A stretch of DNA of 59,184 nt, filler included. It is 5 parts of 5 records of this genome, joined end to end, with 100 filler letters (N's around TTAATTAATTAA, not from the genome) between each part and the next. Parts side by side here need not be neighbours in the genome. Positions count along the whole stretch, not along the records: positions 17,215 to 29,812 come from SRR31156797_7346; 4 more parts are not named here. The stretch is one strand, 5' to 3'. The translations under genes and the position numbers were made by a program. A model generated the notes under the pieces. That model was not told the origin of the DNA. It made no database searches and was given only the letters and a program-made list of their open reading frames with translations. Of the stretch, positions 17,115-34,655 are shown one piece after another; positions within the stretch are counted from its first letter, which is position 1; the number at the start of each line of letters is the position of its first letter.

Positions 17115-17214
17115 NNNNNNNNNNNNNNNNNNNNNNNNNNNNNNNNNNNNNNNNNNNNTTAATTAATTAANNNNNNNNNNNNNNNNNNNNNNNNNNNNNN
17201 NNNNNNNNNNNNNN
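17115..17214. other. Artificial contig spacer
   Basis: N-run + TTAATTAATTAA (stops in all six frames) + N-run. Confidence 0.99.
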
Positions 17215-17892
17215 AATCTCTTTTAAAAGGATCTCTTTTTCATCTAAGGATTTTTTTAGTTTTTGATTGATAGATGTTATTTTGTTTTTATAAATGTGTC
17301 TTTGAGTAGTATCTCTTCCAAATGCACATACATAATCTTTCCCTGCGTGGGTAAATCCATGACCAGTGACTTCTATATCTATGATTGTTCCATCTTTTCT
17401 TTTTTGAGTAGTTTCTAAGGACCAATCTTTAGAATTAAATATTTCATTGATAATATCTATAGCTCCTTGTCTATCAAAGTTATAATCCATCTTTTCTAAA
17501 GGTTGTCCTAAAAGCTCCTCTTTTTTATACCCCAACATATTACAAGTTGCATCATTTACATAGACAAATTTAGCATCAAGTGTAAACCAATAAATAGCAT
17601 CAACAGAGTTATCTAATGCAAACTCATAGGGCACTAATCTCTCTTTATCATTATCTTTTAATTCAGTATATGAGTTGTCCAAACGCTCATAAATAATTAC
17701 AAGAAATAATATGATCCCCGTATAACTTAAAACAATAAGCATTATAGTTAGTGGGGTAAGGTTTGTAAGTTCATTACATTCATTATATATAGTTACTAGG
17801 TTATTGATGAATATAACCCCTAAACCTAATAAGAGGATATATATAGTTACTAATTTGATTCTAAGTGTTTTTTTATGATCTCTATTTTTCAA
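17215..17892 (-). CDS. Membrane PAS sensor histidine kinase, HisKA_2/HWE type (3' truncated)
   Basis: Two TM helices, a PAS domain (YVNDATCNMLGY..KRKDGT) and SLDEKEILLKEI, which in this family precedes HHRVKNN. TTG start. Confidence 0.75.
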
Positions 17893-17952
17893 AAACTATC
17901 CCATTGTAACATTTTAAATATTTTAACAGAAAATAAATTTTTTTTTTAAGAA

Positions 17953-17985
17953 TGCGAAAGTTTTGCGACTTTTTTCATTTAAGAT
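17953..17985 (+). promoter_or_regulatory. Putative dmpK promoter: TGCGA direct repeat (11-bp period) plus -10-like TAAGAT
   Basis: TGCGA at 17953 and 17964, TAAGAT at 17980-17985, SD AAGGAG before the ATG at 18016. Confidence 0.5.
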
Positions 17986-18015
17986 TCATTTGTCTAAGTT
18001 CAAAAAGGAGTTTTT

Positions 18016-18246
18016 ATGTATGAACTAATGCCAAATGAAAAAAAATTCGTGCAAATTATTGAGATTAAAGATAATGGATTTGTAGAGTTTTATTTTGCTG
18101 TTGGTGAGGCAGAGATGAACGTTGAGTTACTTCTGCCATACAGAGCCTTTATTGAGTTTTGCGGGAACAATAGAGTCTCTTTTGTCACTAAAGAGCAAGA
18201 GCAAGCGTTGAAAGTCAGTAATGAGATTTGGAAAAATGGACTTTAA
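18016..18246 (+). CDS. dmpK: Phenol hydroxylase assembly protein P0
   Basis: GFVEFYFAVGEAEMNVELLLPYRAFIEFC..NRV; first gene of the operon; good SD. Confidence 0.9.
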   Translation: MYELMPNEKKFVQIIEIKDNGFVEFYFAVGEAEMNVELLLPYRAFIEFCGNNRVSFVTKEQEQALKVSNEIWKNGL

Positions 18247-18263
18247 AATATGAAGGAGAAAAT

Positions 18264-19256
18264 ATGGAATTAAACATTGCAAATATTGAGATTGAGCCAA
18301 AAAGACACACTTTTGCTCATATAGCTAGAAGGTTTGGTGAGGATAGACCAGCATCAAGATATGAAGAAGCTGTTTATGATGCACAAGCAACAGACAATTT
18401 TCACTACAGACCACTTTGGGAGCCAGAGTTTGAAATATATGATGTAGGAAGAACAGCTATCAAGATGGATGATTGGTATAAGCTTCTTGATCCTAGAAAG
18501 TTTCATTATATGACATATGTTTCTACAAGAGCAAAAGAGAATAGTGCAAACCAACAAAGTTTTGATTTTGTTGAAAAAAATGGATTGGTCAATAAAATAA
18601 GTGATACCATGAAAGAAAAAATCTATAAATATCTTGCTCCATTAAGACATTATGAATATGGTGCAAACCTAAATAATTTGTCTATCGTATCAAGAGGGTA
18701 TGGAACAGCCTTAAACTCTGGGGCATTATTTTATGCAACAGATAGTTTAGGTATGGCACAACATGTTACAAAAACAATATTAGCAATTTCAAGTAATGAT
18801 ACTACTGTATTGGATGGTGCAAAAGAGGCTTGGATGAGTGATGCAGATTGGCAACCTCTACGAGAGCTCATGGAAAATACAATGGTTATAAAAGATCCTA
18901 TTGAGATTTTAATAGCACAAAATGTTGCTCTTGATGGTATGGTAATCCCTTTACTTGTAAAGGAGTTCTCAGCTGAACTTGCAAAAAGTGGAGAATATAC
19001 TGTTCAAATGTTAGTTGATTTTATTTCAACTTGGCAGGAAAGTACTACGAAATGGCTGGATGCACTAGTAAAAGTGATGGCAGATGAATCTCAAGAGAAT
19101 AAAGATCTGTTATCTCAATGGGCAAAAGAGTATATAGAAAAAGCAAAAACGGCACTGAGTCCTTTATCAACATTTACCAACAATGAAGATCTATTATCAG
19201 AAATAGAACAAGCTTTAGTAAATAGACTCAATAAAACTGGTCTAAACATTAATTAA
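18264..19256 (+). CDS. dmpL: Phenol hydroxylase beta subunit P1
   Basis: PKRHTFAHIARRFG..RPASRYEEA, NFHYRPLWEP, DPR, LAPLRHYEYGANLNN. Start at MELNI after SD AAGGAG. Confidence 0.95.
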   Translation: MELNIANIEIEPKRHTFAHIARRFGEDRPASRYEEAVYDAQATDNFHYRPLWEPEFEIYDVGRTAIKMDDWYKLLDPRKFHYMTYVSTRAKENSANQQSFDFVEKNGLVNKISDTMKEKIYKYLAPLRHYEYGANLNNLSIVSRGYGTALNSGALFYATDSLGMAQHVTKTILAISSNDTTVLDGAKEAWMSDADWQPLRELMENTMVIKDPIEILIAQNVALDGMVIPLLVKEFSAELAKSGEYTVQMLVDFISTWQESTTKWLDALVKVMADESQENKDLLSQWAKEYIEKAKTALSPLSTFTNNEDLLSEIEQALVNRLNKTGLNIN

Positions 19257-19265
19257 GGAGAGAAT

Positions 19266-19541
19266 ATGTCAAAAAGTATTGCGTTATTATGTGTTCAGGC
19301 TACTGACGAGGGAAGAACTATCGCTGAGGCTATCAAGGTAGATAATGAGGGTATAAAAATCACAAATAAGCCTGCCATGATCCAAATAGAAAGAGAAGGG
19401 GAGATCGTAATAAAAGCAGATACCGTTTCTGAAGCTTTAGGAAGAGAGTGGGAAACTGAAGAGTTACAGCTTATTTTGATCTCAACAGGTGGTCAAATAG
19501 ATGAAGATGAAGATCAATTTGTAGTTTATTGGAATAGTTAA
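19266..19541 (+). CDS. dmpM: Phenol hydroxylase regulatory (effector) protein P2, MmoB/DmpM family
   Basis: R.IAEAI..DN, PAMIQIE, LGREW, LISTGGQIDEDED; operon position. Confidence 0.93.
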   Translation: MSKSIALLCVQATDEGRTIAEAIKVDNEGIKITNKPAMIQIEREGEIVIKADTVSEALGREWETEELQLILISTGGQIDEDEDQFVVYWNS

Positions 19542-19554
19542 AAAGGAGAAGATT

Positions 19555-21063
19555 ATGAGTAGTGCAGAACCAAGAAAAAAAAGACTAAGTAAAAAAGAGT
19601 CATATAAATATATGACAAGATTAGGTTGGGATACAACTTATAAAAGTGAAGAAGAAACTCATCCAAGCTTAAATATGGAAGGTATCAAAATACATGATTG
19701 GGACGCATGGGAAGATCCTTTTAGAATGACTATGGATTCATACTGGAAACTTCAAGCAGAAAAGGATAAAAAGCTTTACTCTATCATAGATGCTTTTGCA
19801 CAAAATAATGCTCAAAAGAATATCTCTGATGCAAGATATGTAAATGCTTTAAAACTCTTTTTAACAGGGGTAACACCTTTAGAACATAAAGTGGTAAATG
19901 GATTTGCAAATGCAGCAAGAGCTTTTAAAGGTGAAGGTGCAACCATCGCATGTCAAATGCAAGCTATAGATGAGCTTAGACACTATCAAACACAAGTACA
20001 TACAATAAGCCATTATAATAAATATTTTGATGGGTTTAGTGAGTATAGAACCCTTCATGATAGAATCTGGTATCTTTCTGTTCCAAAATCTTTTGGTGAT
20101 GATGCGAGTACAGCTGGACCATTTGAGTTTATGGTTGCTATTGGGTTTTCATTTGAGTTTGTTCTTACAAGTTTACTTTTTGTTCCATTTATGAGTGGGG
20201 CTGCGTATAACGGTGATATGGCAACGGTTACATTTGGATTTTCAGCGCAAAGTGATGAGTCTAGACATATGACACTCGGTCTTCAAGCTGTTAAGTTTAT
20301 GCTTGAACAAGATGCTGATAATGTACCTATTGTTCAAGAGTGGATGGATAAATGGCTATGGAGAGGGTATAGAATGCTTGGTCTTGTAGCTATGATGATG
20401 GATTATATGTTACCAAACTCTCCAACCTCTTGGGGTGAAGCTGTTGAGCTTTATATTGAGCAAAATGGTATGGCTTTATATAAAGATTTAGAAAAGTATG
20501 GTATCAAACCACCTATGGATCTCATTGAAGTGATGATTGCTGAAAAAGATCATCTCTCTCATCAAGTTTGGAATATTTTTTATAACCATTCAAATGCAGC
20601 AGCATTTCATACTTGGCTCCCTGATGAAAAAAAGATGGACTGGTTGAGTGAAAAATATCCAAATAGTTTTGATAAACTTTATAGACCTTTATGGACGTAC
20701 CATGCAAATAAAGAGGAGAGATTTTATTCTGAAACTTTACCTCTACTTTGTCAAACATGTCAGATTCCACTTGGATTTACCGATGTTGTAAATGGTAATC
20801 CTGAAGTTTATACCCATGTAACAACTCAATTTAATGGAGAAAATTTCCATTTTTGTTCAGACGGATGTAAACACATTTTTGAGCGAGAACCAGAGAAGTA
20901 TGTGCAATCATGGCTACCTCCTCATCAAATTTTCCAAGGAAATTGTGGTGGAGCTACACTCCCAGAAGTAGTTAAATGGTATACAATAGAAGATGGTGTG
21001 GATAATTTAGACTATGTGGGTTCACCAGATGAAGCTATGTGGAACAAACTAAAAAATATATAA
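19555..21063 (+). CDS. dmpN: Phenol hydroxylase alpha (diiron) subunit P3
   Basis: IHDWDAWEDPFR, two DExRH motifs (IDELRH, SDESRH), WYLSVPKSF, and C-terminal CQTC..FCSDGC with EPEKY. Confidence 0.97.
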   Translation: MSSAEPRKKRLSKKESYKYMTRLGWDTTYKSEEETHPSLNMEGIKIHDWDAWEDPFRMTMDSYWKLQAEKDKKLYSIIDAFAQNNAQKNISDARYVNALKLFLTGVTPLEHKVVNGFANAARAFKGEGATIACQMQAIDELRHYQTQVHTISHYNKYFDGFSEYRTLHDRIWYLSVPKSFGDDASTAGPFEFMVAIGFSFEFVLTSLLFVPFMSGAAYNGDMATVTFGFSAQSDESRHMTLGLQAVKFMLEQDADNVPIVQEWMDKWLWRGYRMLGLVAMMMDYMLPNSPTSWGEAVELYIEQNGMALYKDLEKYGIKPPMDLIEVMIAEKDHLSHQVWNIFYNHSNAAAFHTWLPDEKKMDWLSEKYPNSFDKLYRPLWTYHANKEERFYSETLPLLCQTCQIPLGFTDVVNGNPEVYTHVTTQFNGENFHFCSDGCKHIFEREPEKYVQSWLPPHQIFQGNCGGATLPEVVKWYTIEDGVDNLDYVGSPDEAMWNKLKNI

Positions 21064-21070
21064 AGGAAAA

Positions 21071-21433
21071 ATGATGGCAGTTAATTCAATAGGGGAATAC
21101 CCATTAGTTATGAAAGACAGTATTGATAGGTTTCATGGAAATCAGTTAGTGTTTATTTATTGGTATGGGCATAGAGTTGTGAGCTCTCCAAGAGCATTTC
21201 CATTACCTCCTGATATGCCTTTTGGAGCAATTTTATCAGATATTATACCTCTTACATATAAGGTTGAGCCAGATTTTGAAAAACTTGATTTTGAAACTAC
21301 TGAAGTTATTTGGGAAGTGGATGGAAAAGTGATCACTCCAGATCCTAGTAAAAGTTTAAAAGAGAATGGAATAGGGCATAAATCTTATATTCAATTTACC
21401 ACACCAACTTTAACAGGAAAGATTGGAGCATAG
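21071..21433 (+). CDS. dmpO: Phenol hydroxylase gamma subunit P4
   Basis: MAVNSIGEY, FHGNQL, FPLPPDMPFGA, PDPSKSLKENGIGHKS. Start may be the second ATG at 21074. Confidence 0.93.
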   Translation: MMAVNSIGEYPLVMKDSIDRFHGNQLVFIYWYGHRVVSSPRAFPLPPDMPFGAILSDIIPLTYKVEPDFEKLDFETTEVIWEVDGKVITPDPSKSLKENGIGHKSYIQFTTPTLTGKIGA

Positions 21434-21434
21434 T

Positions 21435-22493
21435 ATGGCATGCAAATTAGAGATTGAACCTACAGGTGATATGGTAGATGTAGAAGAGGGGCAAACTTTA
21501 CTAGATGCTGCCTTACGGCAAGGGGTGTATCTCCCCCATGCTTGTAATCATGGACTATGTGGTACTTGCAAAGTTGAAGTTTTAGAGGGTGAAGTTGATC
21601 TAGGAGATGCTTCTCCTTTTGCTTTAATGGATGTGGAAAGGGAAGATGGATATTGTCTTGCTTGTACTGCTACTGCTTTAGAGGATGTAGCTATTGAAGC
21701 AGATATAGATGAAGATCCAGATGCTAGAAGTATCCCTGTAAAAGATTTTGAGGGAACAGTAGTTGAGTTTAGGATGCTTACTCCTAGAATACTTGGAGTT
21801 TGGATAGAACTTGATGAACAGATAGATTTTCAAGCTGGTCAGTATATCAATCTTCATGTACCAGGGTTTGATGAACCAAGAGCTTTTTCTTTAGCAAACC
21901 AACCAAGTACAGGGAAAGTGATAGAGCTAAATATAGGGATTATCCCTGATGGTGAAGTTACCCCTTGGATCCATGAAAATATAAAAGTTGGAGATAGATA
22001 TAAAGTCTCAGGTCCATTTGGAAGATTTTTTGTCAAAAGAAGTGCAAAGCTTCCTATGATATTCTTTGCAGGTGGTTCAGGACTTTCAAGTCCAAAGTCT
22101 ATGATCTTAGATGAATTGGAAAATGGATGTGTAGAACCTATTACCCTTTTTCATGGAGCTAGAGATGTTCAAGAGCTTTATTATGCTGAGATGTTTAAAG
22201 AGCTAGAGAGTAAATATGAAAACTTTACATACATACCTGTTTTATCAGATAATGAAGATGAGAGTTGGCAAGGGGAAGTTGGTTTTACCAATGATGTGGC
22301 AAAAAAACTTTATGATGGAAAATTTAGTGGTAATAAAGCCTATCTATGTGGACCACCAATGATGAGTGAAGCGTGTATCACCACTTTAATGCAAGGAAGA
22401 CTTTTTGAAAAAGATATCCATACTGAAAAGTTTTTTTCAAAAGCTGATTTGAATAAGGAAAATACAAAAAGTCCACTTTTTAAATCTTTATGA
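21435..22493 (+). CDS. dmpP: Phenol hydroxylase NADH reductase P5 ([2Fe-2S] + FAD/NAD)
   Basis: PHACNHGLCGTCK..CLAC, RAFSLAN, AGGSGLSSPKSM, AYLCGPPMM, EKFF, SPLFKSL. Confidence 0.95.
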   Translation: MACKLEIEPTGDMVDVEEGQTLLDAALRQGVYLPHACNHGLCGTCKVEVLEGEVDLGDASPFALMDVEREDGYCLACTATALEDVAIEADIDEDPDARSIPVKDFEGTVVEFRMLTPRILGVWIELDEQIDFQAGQYINLHVPGFDEPRAFSLANQPSTGKVIELNIGIIPDGEVTPWIHENIKVGDRYKVSGPFGRFFVKRSAKLPMIFFAGGSGLSSPKSMILDELENGCVEPITLFHGARDVQELYYAEMFKELESKYENFTYIPVLSDNEDESWQGEVGFTNDVAKKLYDGKFSGNKAYLCGPPMMSEACITTLMQGRLFEKDIHTEKFFSKADLNKENTKSPLFKSL

Positions 22494-22495
22494 TA

Positions 22496-22525
22496 TAGAG
22501 TATGGTAATTGGACACCATACTCTA
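22496..22525 (+). terminator. Stem-loop directly after dmpP (terminator or mRNA-stabilising hairpin)
   Basis: Perfect 11-bp stem TAGAGTATGGT / ACCATACTCTA with an 8-nt loop; no clear U-tail. Confidence 0.55.
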
Positions 22526-22634
22526 GTATAAAACTCCCTTTATCTATAATAAAAAGTATTATTTTATTTAGGCTACAGTAATATTTTAGTAAAATAATAG
22601 TAAATTCATTAGATATATTATCTAAAGGTATATT

Positions 22635-23030
22635 ATGGAACAACTCATTTATTGTAGTACTGCAAAACCTGATACAAGTTTTGAAATGGTTAAAAGTATC
22701 TTAGATGTTGCAAAGAATAAAAATAAAGAGTTTGGTTTGAGTGGGATGCTTATTTTTAATGGTACTTATTTTTTGCAATGTATTGAAGGACCAAAAGAAC
22801 ATATACAAACTCTTTACTCAAACATTCTTAGAGACACAAGACATCATAATATTAAAAAAATAGACCAAATAGAGATAAAAAAAAGAGATTTTGCTCAATG
22901 GTCTATGGGGTATTACAATTCTAGAAAACAGATTAATCAATTTATTCAGCATGATAATTACGATCCTTATTCTATAAAGTTTGAAGAGGCTAAAAAACTG
23001 TTGATCAAATTTTCTAAAGGTATAGTTTGA
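22635..23030 (+). CDS. Stand-alone BLUF blue-light photoreceptor
   Basis: LIYCS (Tyr), NKEFGLSGML (Asn), FLQCIEG (Gln), RDTRH, FAQWSM (Trp/Met); the photochemically required residues are present. Confidence 0.93.
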   Translation: MEQLIYCSTAKPDTSFEMVKSILDVAKNKNKEFGLSGMLIFNGTYFLQCIEGPKEHIQTLYSNILRDTRHHNIKKIDQIEIKKRDFAQWSMGYYNSRKQINQFIQHDNYDPYSIKFEEAKKLLIKFSKGIV

Positions 23031-23067
23031 AAAAAACAGTAAAAAATATTATGAAGAAGGTATTTTA

Positions 23068-23649
23068 GTGAGAGGGATTTTATTTAAAGCATATACAGAG
23101 TTTATTAAAGATCGTTTTGATTCAAAGATTTTAGATCAAGTTCTTCAAAATGGAGATTATCCAAATAGTGGTGGTTTTTCTGCTTTGGGAAACTACCATA
23201 CCTCATATATGACCTCTTTAATAGATAATAGTGCAGTTTTTTTTAAGTGTTCAAAAAATGCTATTATGAGACAGTTTGGAAGATTTACTTATGGGTATCT
23301 TCATAAAAGATTTAAAAAAATGTATGCAGATCAAAGTGAGATATTGAATCTCAATAATCCATTTGATTTTTTAGAAAATCTCAATACCTTACACTTTGCA
23401 GAGTTAAAAAAGCTTTACCCAAATGCTCATTTTCCTAAATTTGAGATAGAAAGAGTTGGGGATGAACATATTATTTTAGAGTATTCTAGCTTTAGAGATA
23501 TTCCTTATTTAACCTATGGATTGATTGAGGGGTGTTTAGAGTATTATAAAGTGGTAGGATCAGTAACTATGATGAAGCTAGATAAGGTAAGACAGATTGA
23601 TGCTCAAGCCTATCCAGTCTATAGATTTGAGGTGAAAAAAGATGGATAA
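23068..23649 (+). CDS. H-NOX (heme NO/O2-binding) protein
   Basis: MRGILF N-terminus, proximal His in LHFAELKKLYP, conserved Pro in FPKF, YxSxR (YSSFR), GLIEG. GTG start. Confidence 0.9.
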   Translation: MRGILFKAYTEFIKDRFDSKILDQVLQNGDYPNSGGFSALGNYHTSYMTSLIDNSAVFFKCSKNAIMRQFGRFTYGYLHKRFKKMYADQSEILNLNNPFDFLENLNTLHFAELKKLYPNAHFPKFEIERVGDEHIILEYSSFRDIPYLTYGLIEGCLEYYKVVGSVTMMKLDKVRQIDAQAYPVYRFEVKKDG

Positions 23650-24997
23650 TAGAGCCTTAAATGAGGAGGTAGAACTTCTTAAAAGAGAATTGATACGTGA
23701 ACAGCTTGCCCATTTAGAAACTGAAGAAATAGCTGAAAAAGTTACTTTAGAACTCTATAATACAAATACACAGCTCCAAACTATTTTTGATATTACAAAA
23801 GATGGGATAGCTATTGTTGATCTTGAAACAAATTTTTTATTTTTTAATAAAGCATATCTTTTAATGACAGGTTTTACATCTGAAGAACTTTTGACAAAAA
23901 GCTGTGCAGGTCTTTCTACAAAAGAGGATTTACAAAGATCACAAGATGTAGTAGAAGAGGTGATCCAAAAAGGTTTTGTTGAAAACTTTGAAAAAACATG
24001 TATCGCAAAAGATAATAGAAGATTGTATGTAAATATGTCTTTTGCACTTATGCCTGATAAAAAACGGATCTTAGTTGCTACAAAAGATATCTCAGAGCAA
24101 AAAAGAAAAGAGAAAGTTATCCAAGATTATGTGCAGCTTATTGATATGAGTGTGATCACTTCTTCAACTGATCTTGAAGGGAATATTACATATGTATCAG
24201 ATGCATTTTGTACTATAAGTGGGTATTCAAAAGAGGAATTAATAGGACAAAACCATAGAATCGTTAGACATCCTGATATGGATCAAGAGGTATATAGGGA
24301 ACTATGGAACACTATAAAACTTGATATGGTATGGGTAGGAGAGCTTAAAAACAAAAAAAAAGATGGAAGCTCGTATTGGGTGCAAGCTTCAGTTTCTCCT
24401 ACATATGATGAATATGGTAAAAAAATTGGTTATACCTCAGTTCGTCAAGATATCACAGATAAAAAGATCTTAGAGCAGATCTCTATCACAGATCCTTTAA
24501 CAAATATTTATAATAGAAGATACTTTGATGAAGTATTTTCAAATGTATACAATAATGCAAAGAGAAATAATCAATATGAGTTTTTTCTTATTTTAGATAT
24601 TGATCATTTTAAACAATACAATGATTATTATGGACACCATATGGGTGATGAGACTTTAAAAAAAGTGGCAAGTTGTTTACAAAAACCTTTAAAAAGAAAA
24701 GAAGATTATTGTTTTAGACTTGGAGGGGAAGAGTTTGGTGTACTCTATCAGGCTGAATCAAAAGAGCAAGGTCTAAAGTATGCAGAAACTATTAGAGAGT
24801 CTATAGAAAGCTTACAAATTGCACATAAATATAATAGTGCTAGTGCTTATGTCACTATCTCTTTGGGGTTGGTATGTATAAATAGTACAAATGATCAAAT
24901 AGATAGCAAAACAAAAATCTATCAACAAGCTGATCAATTATTGTATGTGGCTAAAAACTCTGGTAGAAATCAAGTATGTTTTATGATAAATGAATAA
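23642..24997 (+). CDS. PAS-PAS-GGDEF diguanylate cyclase
   Basis: N-terminal coiled coil, two PAS domains, TDPLT..NRR, LDIDHFKQYNDYYGH, RxxD I-site (RKED), RLGGEEF, AKNSGRN. Overlaps the H-NOX gene by 8 nt. Confidence 0.95.
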   Translation: MDNRALNEEVELLKRELIREQLAHLETEEIAEKVTLELYNTNTQLQTIFDITKDGIAIVDLETNFLFFNKAYLLMTGFTSEELLTKSCAGLSTKEDLQRSQDVVEEVIQKGFVENFEKTCIAKDNRRLYVNMSFALMPDKKRILVATKDISEQKRKEKVIQDYVQLIDMSVITSSTDLEGNITYVSDAFCTISGYSKEELIGQNHRIVRHPDMDQEVYRELWNTIKLDMVWVGELKNKKKDGSSYWVQASVSPTYDEYGKKIGYTSVRQDITDKKILEQISITDPLTNIYNRRYFDEVFSNVYNNAKRNNQYEFFLILDIDHFKQYNDYYGHHMGDETLKKVASCLQKPLKRKEDYCFRLGGEEFGVLYQAESKEQGLKYAETIRESIESLQIAHKYNSASAYVTISLGLVCINSTNDQIDSKTKIYQQADQLLYVAKNSGRNQVCFMINE

Positions 24998-25011
24998 GTT
25001 CTCTCTACTGT

Positions 25012-26883
25012 TTAATATTTTTTAAGTTTGATTGTAAACTTTGCTCCTTGTACTGTATTACTAGCGAGAATAGTTCCATTTAACTTTGTTTCAATGATCA
25101 GTTTAGACATATAAAGCCCAAGACCACTTCCCTCTTTACGGTTTTTTGTGGTAAAATAGATATCAAATATTTTGGATAAAAGTTCCTTTTTTATCCCTCC
25201 TGCATTATCTTTAATAGTCACTATCACATGCTCTTTTGTTTCATTTATTTTGATAGTGATCTCTCCATTTAATACTTCCCTTGCAACAATCGCATCTTCA
25301 GCATTAGCAATGATATTTAAAATAACTTGGGAAAACTCATTTGGATAGCCAGTAAACTTTACTAGTTTCTCTTTATCTTTGAAGTTTATTTTAATATGTT
25401 TATAAACTAAAGAGGCTTTGATGATATTTAAGGCATTGTCTATTTGTTCATTGACAATAAAGGTGACTTTTTGGTTTTTAGGTTCAAAAAAGTTTCTAAA
25501 ATCATCTATAGTTACAGACATGTATTTTATAAGCTGATTTCCCGCTTCTAGCTTTTTACTTAAGTACTCTTCTGTGAGTTCATCAAATGAATAAGCTGAT
25601 TCTAGGTTCATAAAAATTCCACCAAGTTTTGAAAGGGGTTGTCTCCATTGATGGGCAATATGACCTATCATTTCCCCCATAGTCGCAAGTTTTGCTTGCT
25701 GCATTAAAAGATACTCACTCTCCATCCGTTTTTTGATCTCTTTATCAATGATCTCTTGGAGTTGTTGATTTTTATTTTCATAGGTGGTTACATCTTTTAA
25801 AATAAGTTTAATATAACTGCTTGAGAGATTTTTTGAAATAGTTCCTGAAACCTCATAGGTAAGATCTTTGATTCTCACGGTTACATTGCTAATAGTACCA
25901 ATAGATTCAATATGGTTTTTGATCGTTTCCCAATCATTTTGAGAAAGGATACTGGTGATCTTTGTATCGATGTAGGTTTCACCAAAATGTTTAATTGCTT
26001 CATCATTGAGCCACGATACGATCGCATTGGTATCTGTATGATACACCTCAATGATCGGTTCTGGTAAAAAGTTCATGATCTCTTGGGCATGTTTGATCTT
26101 ATTTTGTAAAACCTTTGTATAGTTTCCTTTTATATGTTGGAGGATATCTCTATTGGTAAGTAAAGAGATAACTTTACCTGATAGGTCTGTCACTACTATC
26201 CGTCTGATTTGCTGTAGTTGCATAATCTCAATAGCAGTGTGTACATCTGTATCTAAGGGGATTGTAATAAGAGGTGATGCCATATGAGCTGAGATAGAAC
26301 TTTGCATATCAACTTCATTATAAATAGCCTGAATAATATCTTTTTCTGTCACTATCCCAATATGTTGATCTTTTTTTGAGATGATCACAGAACCTATTTT
26401 ATTCATTTTCATGATACTTAGAGTTTTTTGTATAGTGGTTGTATCTTCAACACATAAAAGCTGTTTGTTTGTATTGATAAGGTTTTGAATCTTTAGATCA
26501 ACTTTATAAAAATCAGATTCTAGGTGTCTAATGAGATCCTCTTGAAGTACGATTCCTTTATATTGATCATTTTCATCTTTTAATAAAAGTCGTTTGATAT
26601 TATTTTGATTGAGTATCTCAAAAGCAAACTCTACGGGTCTGCTCTCATCTGTTTCTATTAAGTTCCTATTTGCAATAGTTATTGCTTTTTCATTTAAAGA
26701 GATATTTTTATCAAGCGCGTTTATAATATCACTCTCTGTGATAATACCTATCGCTTTTGTGGTATGAAGTACAACTACACAGCCCGATTTGTTTTCATTG
26801 ATAACTCCTAAGGCTTCTTTAATAGAACTAGAGTCTGTTATCGTAATTGGTTTGCTTGTTTTAATATCTTTTAAAGTAAACAT
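25012..26883 (-). CDS. Cytoplasmic histidine kinase with two CBS pairs and a PAS-like segment
   Basis: GIITESDI, GIVLQEDL, GIVTEKDI and SLLTNRDI (four CBS repeats); IAHQWRQPL H-box, NIIANA, DNAGGI, FTTK, GSGLGL; no TM helix. Confidence 0.9.
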   Translation of the reverse strand: MFTLKDIKTSKPITITDSSSIKEALGVINENKSGCVVVLHTTKAIGIITESDIINALDKNISLNEKAITIANRNLIETDESRPVEFAFEILNQNNIKRLLLKDENDQYKGIVLQEDLIRHLESDFYKVDLKIQNLINTNKQLLCVEDTTTIQKTLSIMKMNKIGSVIISKKDQHIGIVTEKDIIQAIYNEVDMQSSISAHMASPLITIPLDTDVHTAIEIMQLQQIRRIVVTDLSGKVISLLTNRDILQHIKGNYTKVLQNKIKHAQEIMNFLPEPIIEVYHTDTNAIVSWLNDEAIKHFGETYIDTKITSILSQNDWETIKNHIESIGTISNVTVRIKDLTYEVSGTISKNLSSSYIKLILKDVTTYENKNQQLQEIIDKEIKKRMESEYLLMQQAKLATMGEMIGHIAHQWRQPLSKLGGIFMNLESAYSFDELTEEYLSKKLEAGNQLIKYMSVTIDDFRNFFEPKNQKVTFIVNEQIDNALNIIKASLVYKHIKINFKDKEKLVKFTGYPNEFSQVILNIIANAEDAIVAREVLNGEITIKINETKEHVIVTIKDNAGGIKKELLSKIFDIYFTTKNRKEGSGLGLYMSKLIIETKLNGTILASNTVQGAKFTIKLKKY

Positions 26884-27587
26884 TATGAAACAATATTAAG
26901 TTTATAACCCATTCCACTAATGTTTTGTAGAATTTTAGGATGAGTTTTTTGTCGCAGATTTCTTATTTGACTTCGAATAGCATCAGGAGTCATTACTGAT
27001 TCATACCAGATCTCACTTTCTAACATCTCATAAGTGACAATAGAGTTACTTTTTGAGATAAAAAATTTTAAAAGTTCAAGCTCTTTTCTTCGTAGATCGA
27101 TCGGTTCATTTTCACAATACAAAACATTATGTTTTGTATGGAATTTAAATCCTTCTCCTAGATCAATAAAGCTTAACTCTATATTTTCATCTTCAAGCTC
27201 TTCAAAAACTTTTTCTAAAACTTGAAAAAGATCATCACTTGTTACAGGTTTTACAAGGTATCTACTTATTTGAAGCTCAATAGCATCTAACATAAACTCT
27301 TTATTTGTATACGCAGTTGAGATTACTATTTTTATATCTTTATCTTTTTGACGAATACTTTTAATCATCTGTATTCCATTGAGTTTAGGAAGATTGATAT
27401 CGACGATCATTAAATGTGGTTTGTGCTTTTTATAAAGATCTATCCCTGTTTCAGCATCTTTAGCACAATGTATTTGGGTTGCAAATCGTTCAAAAAACTC
27501 TTTAATATAGTTTCTGATATCATCATCATCTTCAACATAGACAAGTTTTAAATTCGCTAATTTATTTTTTAAATTATTATTTGTCAC
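26883..27587 (-). CDS. OmpR-family response regulator
   Basis: YVEDD, VDINLP, STAY, YLVKP; winged helix ELELL..IW..IRSQIRNLRQK..GMGY. Likely GTG start at 27587 rather than 27677. Stop overlaps the kinase start (TAATG). Confidence 0.9.
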   Translation of the reverse strand: MTNNNLKNKLANLKLVYVEDDDDIRNYIKEFFERFATQIHCAKDAETGIDLYKKHKPHLMIVDINLPKLNGIQMIKSIRQKDKDIKIVISTAYTNKEFMLDAIELQISRYLVKPVTSDDLFQVLEKVFEELEDENIELSFIDLGEGFKFHTKHNVLYCENEPIDLRRKELELLKFFISKSNSIVTYEMLESEIWYESVMTPDAIRSQIRNLRQKTHPKILQNISGMGYKLNIVS

Positions 27588-27647
27588 AACTACTCGCTTT
27601 TTTACCATCATATGGATTATAATAGTCTTGAAATAATACCATGAAAC

Positions 27648-27689
27648 AATGGAATAAAAATGGAACTTCATTTCCATTTTTATTCCATT
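27648..27689. repeat. Perfect 18-bp inverted repeat whose arms are themselves 11-bp-period direct repeats
   Basis: AATGGAATAAAAATGGAA-cttcat-TTCCATTTTTATTCCATT between divergent genes. Confidence 0.9.
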
Positions 27690-27741
27690 ATAAATAGTTA
27701 CAATTACAATTATTATAGCATATAAAAAGTAAAGGAAAAAG

Positions 27742-27957
27742 ATGGCAAACCTTGAAATGACACATGAAGAGTGGGATAAGATATTTCAACAGAGAAAAGA
27801 GTTTGAGAAAAAAAATCCTAAATTAAAGATATCTAAAAGATATAAGTCATATAAAAATGAAGATGGGAAGACTAGTTGTACGAAGTGTGGTAGAACCTCT
27901 GAAATTGGAACCTGTTCTGATTGTGTAGGGGAAAAAGAGTATTTACAAATAGCATAA
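27742..27957 (+). CDS. Small hypothetical protein with CxxC-x7-CxxC (putative Zn finger)
   Basis: 71 aa, CTKC..CSDC, SD AAAGGA. Confidence 0.75.
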   Translation: MANLEMTHEEWDKIFQQRKEFEKKNPKLKISKRYKSYKNEDGKTSCTKCGRTSEIGTCSDCVGEKEYLQIA

Positions 27958-27984
27958 AGTTTATTATCTAAGATAGCAGAAAAT

Positions 27985-28014
27985 AATTGACTTTAAGTCA
28001 ATTGATTGTAAAAT
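27985..28014 (+). promoter_or_regulatory. sigma70-like promoter overlapped by a 19-bp palindrome
   Basis: AATTGACTT-T-AAGTCAATT at 27985-28003; TTGACT (27987) -16 nt- TAAAAT (28009). Confidence 0.55.
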
Positions 28015-28020
28015 AAATTC

Positions 28021-29812
28021 ATGAGTACTTATAAATTTATTTACATAATTCTTTTTATTTTCTTTTCAATCTCCTCTTTTGCTGGGGAACTTATCTCTTT
28101 AACATCAAATGAAAAAGAGTGGATACAAAACAATACGATCAAAGTAGGGGTGAATTCATGGGAGCCTCTAAAGATAATCAATAAATCAAAAACAAGTGCT
28201 ACAGGAATTGATATCGATAGATTAAATCTTATTGTACAAAGATTAGGATTACAAGTAGAGTATGAATATGATACTTTTAGTAATATTATGGAAAAGTTTA
28301 AAGCAAAAAAGATAGACCTTATCCCTTCTGCATATTTTACATATGAGCGAGCAAAATATGGTCTCTTTACACAACCATATCTTTATATCAAAGAGTACCT
28401 TTTTGTAAAAGACAGCAGTAATATTAAAAGTTTTAAAGATCTTCAAAATAAAAAATTAGCTATTGTAAAAAGTTATGGAACTATTGAAAAGATCAAACAA
28501 AAATATCCTCAAATTCAAATTGTAGAAACACAAAATTTAGATGAGTCAATTGAAATGGTCTTAAATGGAAAGGCAGAAGCGCTTTTTGATCTTCAAATAA
28601 GGGTAAATAATTATATTAAAAACAATTATATTTCTGGACTTAAAGGAGTGGCACAAACAAGTTTTGAAGCTTCTCCTATTCACTTTTTTTCAAGTAATGA
28701 TAAACCAATTTTAAATAAGATCTTACAAAAAGGTCTTGATTCTATTGATACAGAAGAGAAACAAGCACTTTCCCAAAAGTGGCTTGGAAATAATTATATA
28801 TCAAACTCCTTTGATAAGCTCTCAACTGAGGAAAAAGTTTATTTATCAAAAAATAAAGTGATCACAATGTGTAATAATCCAAATTGGGCACCAATTGAGT
28901 TTAAAGACTCTAATGGAAATGTAGCTGGTATGGCAATCGATACAATGGAATTGATTGAAAAACAATTGAATATTGAGTTTAAACATATCCCTACAAAAAG
29001 TTGGCAGGAATCCCAAGAGTTTTTAAAAGCAAAAAAATGTGATATTTTACCGTGTGCTTCAAAAACTTTGAAAAGAGAAAAGTATGCGATCTTTACAAAA
29101 CCATATCTTCATTTGCCTTTGGCTATTTTTACAAAAAGAGATGTGGGCTTGGTATCAGATTTGAGTGAAGTGATCGATCAGCCATGGAGCAGAAAAAAAG
29201 GTTCAGGGGTTATCTCTGCTGTAAAAGAGAAATATCCTTCTTTTAAAGTGATCGAAACAAAAGATAATACAGAGGCTTTAAAACTTGTAAGTAATGGGGA
29301 TGTGCATTTTACTATCGCAACTTTGCCAATCGCTTCACATGTGATCAAATCACAACTTTTAGATAATATTCATATTGCAGGATATACTGATATCAAATTT
29401 GATCTCTCTATTGCTGTGCGAGATGATAAGGAGATTTTAAAAAATATTTTAGATAAATCTTTAGCTGAGATCTCACAAAAAGAGCATAACGAGATCTTTC
29501 AAGAGTGGGTTGGAGCTACGGTAAAAGAATCAGTTTTTGATTATAAACAATATTGGCCGATCTTTTTTATAGTAGCAGTGGTGATCATCGCTTTGGTTTA
29601 TAGACAATGGCTTTTAAAACAATCAAATAAAAGATTACAAGGTTTAGTGGATGAAAAGGTAAAAGAGCTACAAGAACTAAATCTTAATCTTATGGAAAAA
29701 GTGAAACAAGAGGTTGAGATCAATAGACACAATGAGTTTCAGCTCTTAGCCCAATCAAAAATGGCTGCTATGGGAGATATGGTAGGAAATATTGCCCATC
29801 AATGGAGACAAC
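28021..29812 (+). CDS. BvgS/EvgS-like sensor kinase with two periplasmic solute-binding domains (3' truncated)
   Basis: Signal peptide, two SBP family 3 repeats (FTQPYL, FTKPYL), TM helix, QSKMAAMGDMVGNIAHQWRQ. Confidence 0.88.
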
Positions 29813-29912
29813 NNNNNNNNNNNNNNNNNNNNNNNNNNNNNNNNNNNNNNNNNNNNTTAATTAATTAANNNNNNNNNNNNNNNNNNNNNNNNNNNNNNNN
29901 NNNNNNNNNNNN
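29813..29912. other. Artificial contig spacer
   Basis: N-run + TTAATTAATTAA + N-run. Confidence 0.99.
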
Positions 29913-30012
29913 CATCGGAACTTAAATATGAGAATCGCTATAGAAGAGTAATAACCGGAATGTGTTTTTATTTACCAGAACGGTCGGCATTGAAATAGGA
30001 TAGAAAATCGTC

Positions 30013-30039
30013 GGCCGGATTCTCAATGATAATCCGGCC
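30013..30039 (-). terminator. Hairpin downstream of oah
   Basis: 9-bp stem GGCCGGATT / AATCCGGCC, 22 nt after the stop, with a short T run a few nt later. Confidence 0.55.
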
Positions 30040-30061
30040 ATCATCATGAAAAAGGTTGCAC

Positions 30062-31204
30062 CTATTCTTTCGGCTTGCCCATTACATCGGCGAACATATC
30101 CATGTCCCAACTGCGGCATTCGGCAATGTTCTGGCGGAACTTGATAAAATCAATAGTGTCCTGTCCGGTGATTTTCTTGGTATTGAAAGCGCCGAATCCG
30201 AGGAAAGCCTCGCCGCCCATGTTGGCGGCCAGCCAGTGCCGGTTCGGATTCTTCATCACATCCCAGAAGTATTTTTTCTTCTGGCGTATGCCGTCGATCG
30301 ATTTGATCAGGCAGCCCGGAAACAGATTGGCAAAGTGCCAAACGATATTATTGACTTCCTGGTCCAATTGTTCAAAGTCTGCATTGGCCTGGTGCTCTTT
30401 GACAAAGGTTCTTGCTTCCTTGAGCGCATCCCCGGTTTTGTATTCACCGTAAACGATCTCGCCGTTATCGATATACCTGTCGGTGACGATCATGGGATTG
30501 CGCACCCACTCGCCGTCAACTTTTAAAACCGGCACAACCTTGCTGATCAGGTTTTTCGTCTTCATCTTGTACGCAGACCACATTTCACACGAAACGCAGT
30601 TCCACATGGCGTCCTCGGCGGTCAGGTACCACGGAAGAAAATCGGAAGAGCCGCCGTCCGGGGCGCTGCCGTGTTTGGGACCGGCCTGACCGAACACGGC
30701 AAGGTCTGATGAAACCGCAAGGTCGCAGGCCATGCCGATTTCCTGACCGCCGGCCACACGCATCCCGTTGACCCGGCAGATGGTCGGTTTTTTACACCCG
30801 AGGATGGAATCGACCATGTGGTTAAAGAGTTCCATGTACTGGCCGTATTCATCGCAGCGCCGGCTGTAATACTCACTGTATTCCTTGGTGTTGCCCCCGG
30901 TGCAGAAGGAGTAGGGCCCCGTACCCGTGAATACAACGGCCACAACACTGCGGTCCACCGAAGCGTTTTCAAACCCGGCGATAACGCCCTTGACCATTTC
31001 GGTGGTGTAGGAATTATACTGTTTCGGGTTGTTGAGCCGGATCCAGGCGACATAAAGACTTTCCACCACATTACCCTGCGCATCGGTCAGAGGCCGCTTT
31101 TCGTAAACCACGCATGGGGCGTCCGCATCCAATCCCCAGTATTTATCATCATGAATCAGATGATTTTTTTCACCGCTTTCCCTCGGCATCCATTCCAGAG
31201 CCAT
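30062..31204 (-). CDS. oah: 6-oxocyclohex-1-ene-1-carbonyl-CoA hydrolase (ring cleavage, anaerobic benzoyl-CoA pathway)
   Basis: Crotonase fold with LNNPKQYNSYTTEMVKGV, FCTGGNTKEY, RVNGMRVAGGQEIGMACD and GQAGPKHGSAPDGG, the Oah/BamA signature. SD AAGGAGG. Confidence 0.95.
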   Translation of the reverse strand: MALEWMPRESGEKNHLIHDDKYWGLDADAPCVVYEKRPLTDAQGNVVESLYVAWIRLNNPKQYNSYTTEMVKGVIAGFENASVDRSVVAVVFTGTGPYSFCTGGNTKEYSEYYSRRCDEYGQYMELFNHMVDSILGCKKPTICRVNGMRVAGGQEIGMACDLAVSSDLAVFGQAGPKHGSAPDGGSSDFLPWYLTAEDAMWNCVSCEMWSAYKMKTKNLISKVVPVLKVDGEWVRNPMIVTDRYIDNGEIVYGEYKTGDALKEARTFVKEHQANADFEQLDQEVNNIVWHFANLFPGCLIKSIDGIRQKKKYFWDVMKNPNRHWLAANMGGEAFLGFGAFNTKKITGQDTIDFIKFRQNIAECRSWDMDMFADVMGKPKE

Positions 31205-31293
31205 AATAAGTACCTCCTTTTATCAAATGTTGAAATATCCATTTCAGAACAATTGCTTAATTCCGAATTCCCAAAGACATCATTATCAGGGAT

Positions 31294-31309
31294 AGCAATA
31301 TGCATGCCA
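31294..31309 (-). promoter_or_regulatory. sigma54 (-24/-12) promoter of oah
   Basis: TGGCATGCATATTGCT versus consensus TGGCACGnnnnTTGCW, 89 nt upstream of the start. Confidence 0.8.
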
Positions 31310-31323
31310 CAGAAGCGGCCACG

Positions 31324-31336
31324 TATTTACTTGATA
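31324..31336 (-). promoter_or_regulatory. IHF-like site upstream of the sigma54 promoter
   Basis: TATCAAGTAAATA versus WATCAAnnnnTTR (one mismatch), in the position typical of sigma54 promoters. Confidence 0.4.
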
Positions 31337-31544
31337 TTACGAGATTATTTTTTGAAGAAATATTTAGTTGAAAATATCTTTCAGCAGAGTTGAAAGTATT
31401 GTGAGGTTGTATACCGAACAGGAGCAATACGAGTGGTTCACGAACCGCCCCGACGCCAATGATTTAATAGAATGTGAAGTCAACCATAGCTGCGATGATT
31501 GCAAAATCGCCGTTAGATTTAAGAGGGTTTTAAGCAGGGGCGGG

Positions 31545-32885
31545 TTAAAGCCTTATATTGTATTGCTGGATCTTCTTTCTCAAGGTCGGCCGTGAAATGC
31601 CGAGCAGTTCGCAAGCGTTGCCCTTATTGTTGCCCGCTTTTACCAGCGCATTGATTATATGCTCTTTTTCCATCTCTTTAAGGGATTTGAATTCGCCATA
31701 GGATTTTGAATCGCCGCCCTGGTTTTCGTTGAAAGTCGAAATATGGTAATCCATTATCACGCCGTCCCTGGAAAGCACAATGGCCCTGGTCAGCGCATTC
31801 TCAAGCTCACGAACATTGCCGGGCCAATCATATTCCATGATTTTATCCATGGCTTTTTCCGAGATGTCCATATCCTTTTTATGGAGTTCCATGCTGATTT
31901 TATGTATGAAGAATTCCACGAGCAAGGGAATGTCGGACTTTCGCTCCCTAAGGGAAGGGACATTGATGGTAATAACCTTAAGCCTGAAAAAAAGATCTTC
32001 CCTGAATTTTCTTTCCGCAACCATTTTAGCCAGATTCCGATTCGTGGCCGCAATTACCCGGGCGTTGGAATATATGGTTTTTTCGCCGCCGACTCTTTCG
32101 AATCTTTTTTCCTGCAAAAATCGTAGTATTTTTACTTGTGTGTTTAGGGGGGTTTCACCGATTTCGTCCAGAAAGATAGTGCCGTTTCCGGCCAGTTCGA
32201 ACTTTCCGGTTTTGGTGCTTACGGCATGTGTAAAAGAGCCTTTTTCATGACCGAAAAGCTCGCTTTCCAATAAAGATTCCACCAATGCGCTGCAGTTTAT
32301 TGAAACCAGGGGTTCATTTTTCAACATTCCATTATAGTGAATCGCCTTGGCTATAAGGTTTTTTCCGGTGCCGCTTTCCCCCTGTATTAGAACGGTCGCC
32401 TTGTTGTTGCATGTTAATCCGATCAATTTGAACATCTGATGGATTTGTTTGCTTTCCCCAATAATCGTATCCAGTTTATACTGTGTTTTCTGGTCATTTA
32501 AATAAATGGAAAGATTCTTTTTCAGTTCAATGGTTTCAATGGCTTTGTTGACGCAGACTTCCAGTTCCTTGATGTTGATCGGTTTGTGGATATAGTCGAA
32601 GGCCCCGAATTTCATGGCTTCTATGGTGGTATCCATAACGCTGAAAGCAGTAATCATGATAACAACGATGTGATCGTCAAAGGCCTTAATATCTTTAAGC
32701 ACTTCAATGCCGTTTACATCCGGCAGCTTTATGTCGAGGATTACTATATCCGGATGCTCCGACTTGACCTTTTCCAGTCCCTCTTTTCCAAATTCGGAAG
32801 TGTAGACCTGGTAGCCTTTTTCCGAAAAAAACATACTCAGTGATTCAAGTATGGCCGTCTGGTCGTCGATGATCAATATTTTCAT
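31545..32885 (-). CDS. NtrC-family sigma54-dependent response regulator
   Basis: REC domain (IIDD, LDIKLP), GESGTGK, ESELFGHEKGSFTHA, FLDEIG, WPGNVREL, Fis-type HTH (LGISRPTL). Confidence 0.95.
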   Translation of the reverse strand: MKILIIDDQTAILESLSMFFSEKGYQVYTSEFGKEGLEKVKSEHPDIVILDIKLPDVNGIEVLKDIKAFDDHIVVIMITAFSVMDTTIEAMKFGAFDYIHKPINIKELEVCVNKAIETIELKKNLSIYLNDQKTQYKLDTIIGESKQIHQMFKLIGLTCNNKATVLIQGESGTGKNLIAKAIHYNGMLKNEPLVSINCSALVESLLESELFGHEKGSFTHAVSTKTGKFELAGNGTIFLDEIGETPLNTQVKILRFLQEKRFERVGGEKTIYSNARVIAATNRNLAKMVAERKFREDLFFRLKVITINVPSLRERKSDIPLLVEFFIHKISMELHKKDMDISEKAMDKIMEYDWPGNVRELENALTRAIVLSRDGVIMDYHISTFNENQGGDSKSYGEFKSLKEMEKEHIINALVKAGNNKGNACELLGISRPTLRKKIQQYNIRL

Positions 32886-32901
32886 AAGCTCTTCAACGTT
32901 T

Positions 32902-34566: not shown

Positions 34567-34655
34567 GATACTCCTCCCAAACGGTTATTGCAAGCATACT
34601 TGAAAAAATGTCGGTAAAGGCGGAAGTACGGCCTATGGTTATAACTGTAGTCAGG

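Follow-up and report, generated by a model that had tools for sequence, protein, structure and literature searches.

The 59-kb window analysed here, the whole stretch of draft DNA along which all positions are counted, carries on its plus strand, at 22635-24997, three open reading frames (ORFs) that code in this order for a protein of the BLUF blue-light sensor family, a protein of the H-NOX haem gas sensor family and a diguanylate cyclase. A gap of 37 nt separates the BLUF and H-NOX genes, and the H-NOX and cyclase genes overlap by 8 nt (ATGGATAA). This locus is a variant of the known cassette in which an H-NOX gene is paired with the gene of a cyclic di-GMP (c-di-GMP) enzyme, with a BLUF gene in front. 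Sequence conservation and the analogy with characterised pairs indicate that H-NOX very probably regulates this cyclase. That the locus as a whole serves c-di-GMP signalling, with a conserved two-gene module at its base and with light and gas converging on one cyclase, is a tentative reading that falls a little short of being probable.

An earlier, sequence-only reading of this DNA had described three co-directional genes with the same gap and the same overlap, exactly as we find them, and had proposed that they form a two-input switch. The part of this proposal that links H-NOX to the cyclase is upheld by our analysis; the part in which BLUF acts on the same cyclase is not, as it rests on adjacency. 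We consider a two-input switch acting on one cyclase to be plausible, its likelihood lying between doubtful and just under balanced. The BLUF and HNOB calls use the curated cut-offs of Pfam, and the Pfam survey of the window covered 48 ORFs. The domain matches at the locus are far beyond chance, and the odds of a BLUF gene adjoining an H-NOX gene are not computable because a single locus was picked from a scan.

The H-NOX/cyclase pair and its relatives

Of 108 pattern matches in a genome scan with an H-NOX alignment, six loci remained, with identities of no more than 52%. The six fetched loci exclude the closest relatives of the window proteins (54-83% identity for H-NOX, 63-73% for BLUF), which derive from metagenome-type data. 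Four of the six come from metagenome-assembled genomes (MAGs) of Sulfurimonas, Sulfuricurvum or Sulfurimonadaceae (L001-L004) and encode H-NOX proteins 43-52% identical to that of the window. In every one of these four loci the H-NOX gene overlaps, again by 8 nt, a gene coding for a helix-PAS-HD-GYP protein of 366-371 amino acids; the gene pairs lie at 1858-3547 in L001 and at about 10001-11678 in L002, L003 and L004. Here H-NOX is paired directly with HD-GYP, and the overlap points to translational coupling. At the fifth locus, from Flavobacteriales, H-NOX is paired with a hybrid histidine kinase. The sixth was rejected as a spurious match inside a restriction-enzyme-like gene. In the excerpts of PMC8846402 available to us, HNOB is mentioned only with GGDEF fusions or, for phosphodiesterases, via two-component systems.

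The first 63 residues of the window cyclase are 44-59% identical to the HD-GYP partners at all four Sulfurimonadaceae loci, and tblastn of residues 3-87 against L001-L004 gave E-values from 1e-9 to 5e-6. This region forms a long helix, which we aligned in nine rows: the four HD-GYP partners encoded beside H-NOX genes and five cyclases, the window's included. Residues R15, R19, E20, E26, T27, E28, I30 and T35 are invariant in all nine. Because the motif is invariant across GGDEF and HD-GYP rows, the helix is the element that accompanies H-NOX irrespective of the output domain, and from its sequence we propose that it serves as an H-NOX docking or transmission element. The sequence-only reading had likened the coil of the cyclase to that of H-NOX partner proteins, a resemblance to which the identity values and the invariant motif now give substance.

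Contig sizes point to the same pair among the closer relatives. An H-NOX relative (P0002, 73% identical) and a helix-bearing cyclase relative (P0168, 74%) are both reported from two contigs, the longest being 2432 nt in each case, an indirect match of reported sizes. This match recovers the expected pair and is a positive control for the same-size reasoning applied below to BLUF.

Characterised H-NOX/cyclase pairs are Hnox1/Lpg1057 of Legionella pneumophila, SwH-NOX/SwDGC of Shewanella woodyi and H-NOX/Dgc1 of Dinoroseobacter shibae, and PMC8846402 provides precedents for H-NOX partners that inhibit or activate cyclases. Since the helix is conserved, the synteny is maintained and such pairs are known, control of the cyclase by H-NOX can soundly be inferred. 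The suggestion made earlier that H-NOX acts on the adjacent cyclase thus agrees with the 8-nt overlap, with the four loci and with the known pairs.

The H-NOX and cyclase proteins

The H-NOX gene (23068..23649, plus strand) begins with GTG and codes for a stand-alone HNOB protein of 193 amino acids, which matches PF07700 over residues 3-162 (E = 1.4e-28; 100.3 bits against a cut-off of 25.5). The GTG start is confirmed by the relatives, 13 of 14 of which begin at an aligned M[RKL]G; the fourteenth has five additional residues ahead of it. P118, P123 and the haem-propionate motif Y139-x-S141-x-R143 are present; the subfamily alignment A1 shows no variation at Y139 and S141, and conservation of at least 90% at R143 and at H109. 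HMMER aligns H109, with a one-residue insertion after it, with the histidine of DFLQNLDGLH in the beta-1 subunit of soluble guanylate cyclase (sGC), which we take to be the haem ligand H105. H109 is the candidate proximal haem-ligating histidine, and haem ligation is predicted from these alignments. The histidine of the subfamily also fits the sGC beta-1 motif DFLxNLxxLH.

Among solved structures in the Protein Data Bank (PDB), the window H-NOX matches 6ocv (9.9e-19) and sGC beta-1 (4e-5), and the profile of alignment A1 matches 29 solved H-NOX or sGC sequences, the best at 8.5e-41. Relatives are few: 15 matches were found among 71 candidates in 5.8 billion proteins, the best at 83% identity. 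On this sequence evidence the protein belongs to a small divergent subfamily. It had been called an intact H-NOX protein before, and the HNOB match, H109, the two prolines and the Y139-S141-R143 motif all speak for that call.

The cyclase gene (23642..24997, plus strand) starts with an ATG that overlaps the H-NOX stop codon by 8 nt, and translational coupling of the two genes is likely. Its product of 451 amino acids opens with a single long helix in the AlphaFold2 (AF2) model (residues 4-51; 23651..23794), which carries the motif R15-x3-R19-E20-x5-E26-T27-E28-x-I30-x4-T35. Two PAS domains follow, both present in the model: PAS1 at residues 55-149 (23804..24088; Pfam PAS_8/PAS_4) and PAS2 at residues 172-270 (24155..24451; Pfam PAS_9, 1.7e-30). 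The GGDEF domain occupies residues 282-447 (24485..24982; Pfam 3.5e-44), the fold itself spanning 292-447 in the model, which has a mean predicted local distance difference test (pLDDT) score of 86.8 and shows a linker helix between the two PAS domains. Checks of the translation place the inhibitory I-site RKED at residues 352-355 (24695-24706) and the active site GGEEF at residues 361-365 (24722-24736), with the canonical spacing of five residues between RxxD and GGEEF. Across 19 relatives no variation occurs at D355 or G361-F365, and conservation of R352 reaches at least 90%. The protein is an active-looking cyclase whose active and inhibitory sites are intact, and catalysis is predicted. 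The sequence-only reading had recognised a GGEEF cyclase with an I-site, which these motifs and the Pfam match corroborate. It was right about the N-terminal coil as well and wrong about the layout, having missed the two PAS domains of what is a helix-PAS-PAS-GGDEF protein.

Many cyclases of Sulfuricurvum, Sulfurimonas and 'Helicobacteraceae' share 50-60% identity with the PAS-PAS-GGDEF core and have different N-terminal modules (dCache_3, REC, membrane segments or none). No match to HNOBA at E <= 0.01 was obtained with Pfam in the N-terminus of the window cyclase. Above their cut-offs only generic GGDEF/PAS models of NCBIfam match the protein, and neither Pfam nor NCBIfam contains a haem- or flavin-specific PAS family that does so. 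PAS2 resembles LOV-type PAS domains in sequence. LOV domains carry a photoactive cysteine motif; PAS2 has GQNHRIV at that site, its match to the NCBIfam YtvA family reaches 86 bits against a cut-off of 250, and LOV-kinase matches are likewise far below cut-off. A role of PAS2 as a LOV photosensor was rejected on these grounds.

The BLUF protein and its link to the cassette

The BLUF gene (22635..23030, plus strand) starts with ATG and codes for a short stand-alone protein of 131 amino acids. Residues 1-92 cover positions 1-92 of the 92 in the BLUF profile PF04940 (E = 4.8e-29; 100.8 bits against a cut-off of 25), and the BLUF core (residues 1-94) is followed by two C-terminal helices at 97-103 and 116-127. 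Y6, N30, Q48, W89 and M91 align to Y8, N32, Q50, W91 and M93 of Tll0078 and to the counterparts of these residues in Slr1694, and in a set of 100 short BLUFs each of them is either invariant or conserved to at least 90%. We take the tyrosine, the glutamine and the methionine/tryptophan to be photocycle residues and the asparagine to be a flavin contact. The AF2 model (pLDDT 91.8) adopts the beta-alpha-beta-beta-alpha-beta-beta fold with a C-terminal helical cap, and matches full-length Slr1694 and Tll0078 in Foldseek with a template modelling (TM) score of 0.87 at 26-27% identity, both C-terminal helices included. The best PDB sequence matches are the same PixD proteins (Slr1694/Tll0078; 3.4e-13). 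The protein looks intact and PixD-like in fold, and it is predicted to bind flavin adenine dinucleotide and to be photoactive. Its Pfam match, key residues and PixD-like fold vindicate the earlier description of an intact stand-alone BLUF protein.

Co-orientation, an unstructured spacer of 37 nt and a ribosome-binding site of its own tie the BLUF gene to the H-NOX/cyclase pair. The spacer (23031..23067, plus strand) has 16% GC and carries GAAGAAGG 7 nt before the GTG codon of H-NOX. It folds at -4.0 kcal/mol (z = -1.6), so that no stable hairpin was found in it by comparison with shuffled sequences, and a terminator scan of 22000-25600 returned no site. GC content at third codon positions (GC3) lies between 0.195 and 0.222 across the three genes (0.205 for BLUF) and between 0.20 and 0.28 in the neighbouring genes. 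A recent horizontal insertion of the BLUF gene, which we considered, leaves no compositional sign in these values. BLUF is probably co-transcribed with H-NOX and the cyclase.

In a quick tree of 76 BLUF rows, the window BLUF forms a clade of four, with P0016-P0018 only, supported by a Shimodaira-Hasegawa-like approximate likelihood ratio test (SH-aLRT) value of 99. One of these relatives, P0017 (63% identical; four contigs, the longest of 3259 nt), shares its contig size with a relative of the cyclase, P0169 (73%; one contig of 3259 nt). P0169, P0168 and the window cyclase are a tight clade, 71-74% identical to one another and with a common two-residue insertion near the C-terminus. P0169 is without the N-terminal helix, and none of the H-NOX matches listed has a contig of 3259 nt. 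If the size inference holds, these data suggest that the PAS-PAS-GGDEF core has BLUF as a companion whether or not H-NOX is present.

The BLUF survey took in the best 150 of 12,999 representatives, only two of which match at E <= 1e-30. The domain scan covered 19 of these 150, namely the top match and 18 of the 21 proteins longer than 170 amino acids (P0062, P0116 and P0118 were left out). Three of the 19 scanned proteins are C-terminal fusions of BLUF to c-di-GMP enzymes: P0033, which is PAS-PAS-GGDEF-EAL-BLUF, together with P0032 and P0130. The fusion types are PAS-PAS-GGDEF-EAL-BLUF, GGDEF/EAL-BLUF and EAL-BLUF, and the BLUF domains of the first two are 41-43% identical to the window BLUF. 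Two more of the 19 are BLUF-BLUF-nucleotidyl-cyclases, and HNOB was found in none of them. Over 603 residues, the enzyme part of P0033 shares 41% identity with the product of a PAS-GGDEF-EAL gene that immediately precedes H-NOX in L001. P0033 is a relative of that protein with an extra C-terminal BLUF domain, so this family of phosphodiesterases has light-sensing members, probably within the same phylum. The L001 gene itself (2-1801, from Ca. Sulfurimonas kebritensis) encodes a degenerate GGDEF domain and ends 56 nt upstream of the H-NOX gene.

Proposed mechanism and alternative readings

By inference from the characterised pairs, haem-bound H-NOX would dock on or near the N-terminal helix of a dimeric cyclase. 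Binding of a ligand, most likely nitric oxide (NO) and possibly oxygen (O2), would alter the conformation of H-NOX and through it the activity of the cyclase and the level of c-di-GMP. The gene of a PixD-like short BLUF would have joined this module at its upstream end, probably as part of the same transcript, and BLUF would then act in trans and in a light-dependent manner on the PAS-PAS-GGDEF core; both of these steps are suggested by gene position. Action of BLUF on this cyclase, directly or via H-NOX, is the reading that we prefer, at somewhat less than even odds. Its stronger form, in which BLUF binds the H-NOX/cyclase complex at the PAS-PAS-GGDEF core or at H-NOX and the cyclase computes a logic of light and NO (or O2), is doubtful.

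A number of observations weigh against this mechanism. The match at 3259 nt is one of reported contig sizes only, in which neither gene order nor co-location is seen. The closest BLUF relative, P0016 (73%; contig of 1442 nt), matches no H-NOX or cyclase hit in size, and neither of the two close BLUF relatives (P0016 and P0017) matches an H-NOX hit in contig size. BLUF is missing from all six fetched loci, searched with flanks of up to 10 kb (best tblastn E = 1.2), and is therefore not part of the conserved cassette; a search of neighbourhoods for BLUF-HNOB-GGDEF synteny had been suggested with the sequence-only reading, and on these six genome-resolved loci it gave no instance. The four cassette relatives have unrelated genes upstream, except L001 with its PAS-GGDEF-EAL gene. 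BLUF fusions attach to EAL, and the GGDEF domain of P0033 is degenerate. In the portion of PMC8846402 that we could consult, the sole precedent for a short BLUF in c-di-GMP signalling, PapB, acts on an EAL protein, and no short BLUF acting on a GGDEF cyclase is listed. The quick tree of 76 rows does not place the EAL-BLUF fusions as sisters of the window BLUF clade, the fusions falling inside an unresolved polytomy of 68 rows. The DNA being 70% A+T, an internal promoter could lie within the BLUF gene or the 37-nt spacer. On the side of H-NOX, H109 lies one residue N-terminal of the histidine of Shewanella/Vibrio-type H-NOX proteins in ungapped alignments (6ocv, 6bde and 4u9b), an offset that we infer from the sequences to be a local register difference and not a loss of the ligand. 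A complex prediction for BLUF against H-NOX plus the full cyclase, made with alignments unused and no controls, scored 0.01 against a mark of 0.34 and has no weight either way.

The three genes might be co-expressed and yet serve separate targets, H-NOX acting on the cyclase and BLUF acting in trans on a protein encoded elsewhere, in which case the light and gas signals would meet in the c-di-GMP pool or at the level of behaviour and not on one enzyme. This is the main rival reading, and we regard it as rather unlikely. The most likely target would then be an EAL phosphodiesterase of the PAS-GGDEF-EAL family, in the manner of PapB and PapA; a PatA-type response regulator, as for PixD and PixE, or a transcription factor would also be possible. 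All three c-di-GMP-enzyme fusions of related BLUFs among the 19 scanned proteins put BLUF after EAL, a relative of P0033 (41% over 603 residues) lies directly upstream of H-NOX in L001 and thus brings the family into the same neighbourhood, and BLUF is absent from the four conserved cassettes. The fold of the window BLUF matches best that of PixD (TM 0.87), the partner of which is a response regulator. However, the Pfam survey of the 48 ORFs found no EAL gene in the 59-kb window, the lone response regulator of the piece that holds the locus is OmpR-type and on the opposite strand, and the sizes shared by P0017 and P0169 point to the GGDEF cyclase as the constant neighbour. Characterised short BLUFs are, moreover, usually encoded beside their partners. 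The PapB/PapA precedent (PMC8846402) argues for a separate target.

It is possible, though unlikely, that the adjacency is incidental and that BLUF is a separately transcribed photoreceptor, or a non-photic flavin/redox sensor. Such a view would account for the lack of BLUF at the six related loci. Only two close relatives of BLUF stand against 14 of H-NOX in the 5.8 billion proteins, which speaks against a general co-occurrence; rare chance neighbours must be expected occasionally in a locus picked from a scan; and promoter-like hexamers are everywhere in AT-rich DNA, those found here being at background (18 against 18.4 expected from shuffles). The shared strand, the 37-nt spacer free of hairpins and terminator-like sites, the uniform GC3 and the 3259-nt coincidence of P0017 and P0169 all stand on the other side, and the window BLUF clade (SH-aLRT 99) is as near to c-di-GMP-enzyme fusions as to any other BLUF. 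An unlikely alternative of a different kind concerns the inputs themselves, which may not be light and NO: H-NOX could report O2 or redox state, a PAS domain could have a cofactor of its own, and inputs could be more numerous or different. It draws on the two PAS domains between helix and GGDEF, on the divergence of H-NOX (9.9e-19 at best to a solved H-NOX, with a shift of one residue in the register of the histidine) and on the distal-pocket residues deciding between O2 and NO, which are not reliably placed in the alignments. Yet PAS2 is without the LOV cysteine and no haem- or flavin-specific PAS family rises above cut-off, and the H-NOX/c-di-GMP pairs of Table 4 in PMC8846402, the portion consulted, all respond to NO.

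Comparison with known systems

Like the H-NOX/cyclase pairs of Legionella, S. woodyi and D. shibae described in PMC8846402, the window locus has a stand-alone H-NOX gene adjoining the gene of a c-di-GMP enzyme with which it is probably co-translated, and its sensor is a partner protein and not a fused domain. Unlike in those pairs, the enzyme is helix-PAS-PAS-GGDEF without EAL, the same module of helix and H-NOX drives HD-GYP in genome-resolved relatives, the H-NOX belongs to a small divergent subfamily, and a BLUF gene lies ahead of the pair.

With PapB-PapA of Rhodopseudomonas palustris the locus shares a short BLUF with C-terminal helices encoded near the gene of a c-di-GMP enzyme. In that system PapB modulates PapA, a c-di-GMP phosphodiesterase, by protein-protein contact (PMC8846402). 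The neighbour in the window is, in contrast, a GGDEF cyclase and not an EAL phosphodiesterase, and the H-NOX gene stands in between. The window BLUF is nearest, in solved fold and in PDB sequence, to PixD (Slr1694/Tll0078) of the PixD-PixE system, from which the window unit differs in having no PatA-type response regulator. Both PixD and PapB are encoded beside their partners, PixE and PapA. A further likeness is to BlrP1 and BldP, light-regulated phosphodiesterases of the EAL-BLUF/BLUF-EAL kind that link BLUF to c-di-GMP turnover, in that BLUF domains 41-43% identical to that of the window are fused C-terminally to (GGDEF-)EAL; unlike these, the window BLUF is unfused and the adjacent enzyme lacks EAL.

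H-NOX/cyclase pairs and BLUF-controlled phosphodiesterases are already known separately. A light sensor and a gas sensor joined to one c-di-GMP enzyme were not found in the open-access literature searched, at the level of titles and abstracts, nor was a joint BLUF/H-NOX operon described there, in keeping with the earlier remark that no operon with both sensors is known. The same search found, by title or abstract, no paper on a BLUF photoreceptor in epsilonproteobacteria, and BLUF photoreceptor systems are apparently absent from C. jejuni according to PMC9426514. If both sensors act on the cyclase, the locus would offer a compact and testable case of signal integration by trans-acting proteins and a natural optogenetic cyclase part. 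It would then be the first case in which a short BLUF controls a GGDEF enzyme in trans and in which two trans-acting sensors work on a single c-di-GMP enzyme, as well as the first photoreceptor function in a chemolithotroph of Sulfurimonadaceae-like (Campylobacterota) type, and its role could be to place cells within redox gradients that are exposed to light. The two PAS domains are further potential inputs to the cyclase. BLUF aside, the portable module of H-NOX and N-terminal helix, which drives GGDEF or HD-GYP, gives a sequence handle on partner recognition.

Among named organisms, MAGs of Sulfuricurvum, Sulfurimonas and 'Helicobacteraceae' come closest, which would place the host only approximately in a Sulfurimonadaceae-like lineage of the Campylobacterota. 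With this approximate assignment, the locus hints at light sensing in a lineage usually taken for dark-living sulfur oxidisers.

Genomic context

The window consists of five draft pieces joined by four non-genomic linkers, N44-TTAATTAATTAA-N44, at 17115-17214, 29813-29912, 35179-35278 and 52175-52274. Genes on opposite sides of a linker are not genomic neighbours, and ORFs that enter linkers are truncated, for example 28021..29868 and 17167..17892. The three-gene locus lies within the piece 17215..29812 (12.6 kb), so that its true context extends over only about 5 kb on each side. A search of the whole window with Rfam gave no match, either to a riboswitch or to rRNA.

The intergenic region upstream of BLUF is 141 nt long in total and has 21% GC. 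It contains an 11-bp perfect hairpin (22496..22525, plus strand) just 3' of the stop codon of a monooxygenase reductase gene; the hairpin folds at -15.8 kcal/mol (z = -3.0; 3 of 200 shuffles fold equally well) and has no U-tract after it. It is possibly a weak terminator or a boundary between the monooxygenase genes and the BLUF unit. The AT-rich leader that follows (22526..22634, plus strand) carries the ribosome-binding site AAAGG, some 6 nt ahead of the ATG codon of BLUF, and is presumed to be the promoter region of the unit.

Directly upstream of the BLUF unit, on the plus strand at 18228..22493, lies a complete-looking cluster for a multicomponent di-iron monooxygenase of the phenol/toluene/alkene type. 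It codes for two hydroxylase subunits, an MmoB/DmpM effector, a DmpO-like subunit and a Fer2-FAD-NAD reductase, the alpha subunit having a YHS domain; such a cluster is unexpected if the host is a Sulfurimonadaceae-like bacterium. Downstream and convergent are the genes of a histidine kinase with four CBS domains and of an OmpR-type regulator (26883..27677, opposite strand), the latter being the sole response regulator on the piece 17215..29812. This kinase (25012-26883) and another with two periplasmic solute-binding domains (28021-29811) share the phospho-acceptor motif IAHQWRQP, and neither is matched by HisKA of Pfam.

The piece 29913-35178 has 46.9% GC against 30-38% in the other four, and codes for an enoyl-CoA hydratase, a sigma-54 activator, a PAS histidine kinase and a carboxyltransferase fragment. 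This piece could be a foreign island or a contig of another organism that was binned by mistake. Two sensor proteins of 1248 and 1151 amino acids are encoded tail to tail, with a small gene in between, at 3729-7475 and 8257-11712, and have a Reg_prop beta-propeller and/or Y_Y_Y together with a C-terminal SpoIIE/PP2C phosphatase. The ORF 11576-14935 (1119 amino acids) combines 2Fe-2S, pyridine-nucleotide-disulphide oxidoreductase, 4Fe-4S, BFD-like 2Fe-2S and DAO domains; its TTG start is doubtful because the first 137 nt or so overlap the divergent ORF 8257-11712. A class III adenylate/guanylate cyclase of 625 amino acids, a further enzyme of nucleotide second messengers in this assembly, is encoded at 39181-41058, where its gene adjoins a bactofilin gene and the ATP synthase a/b/delta genes.

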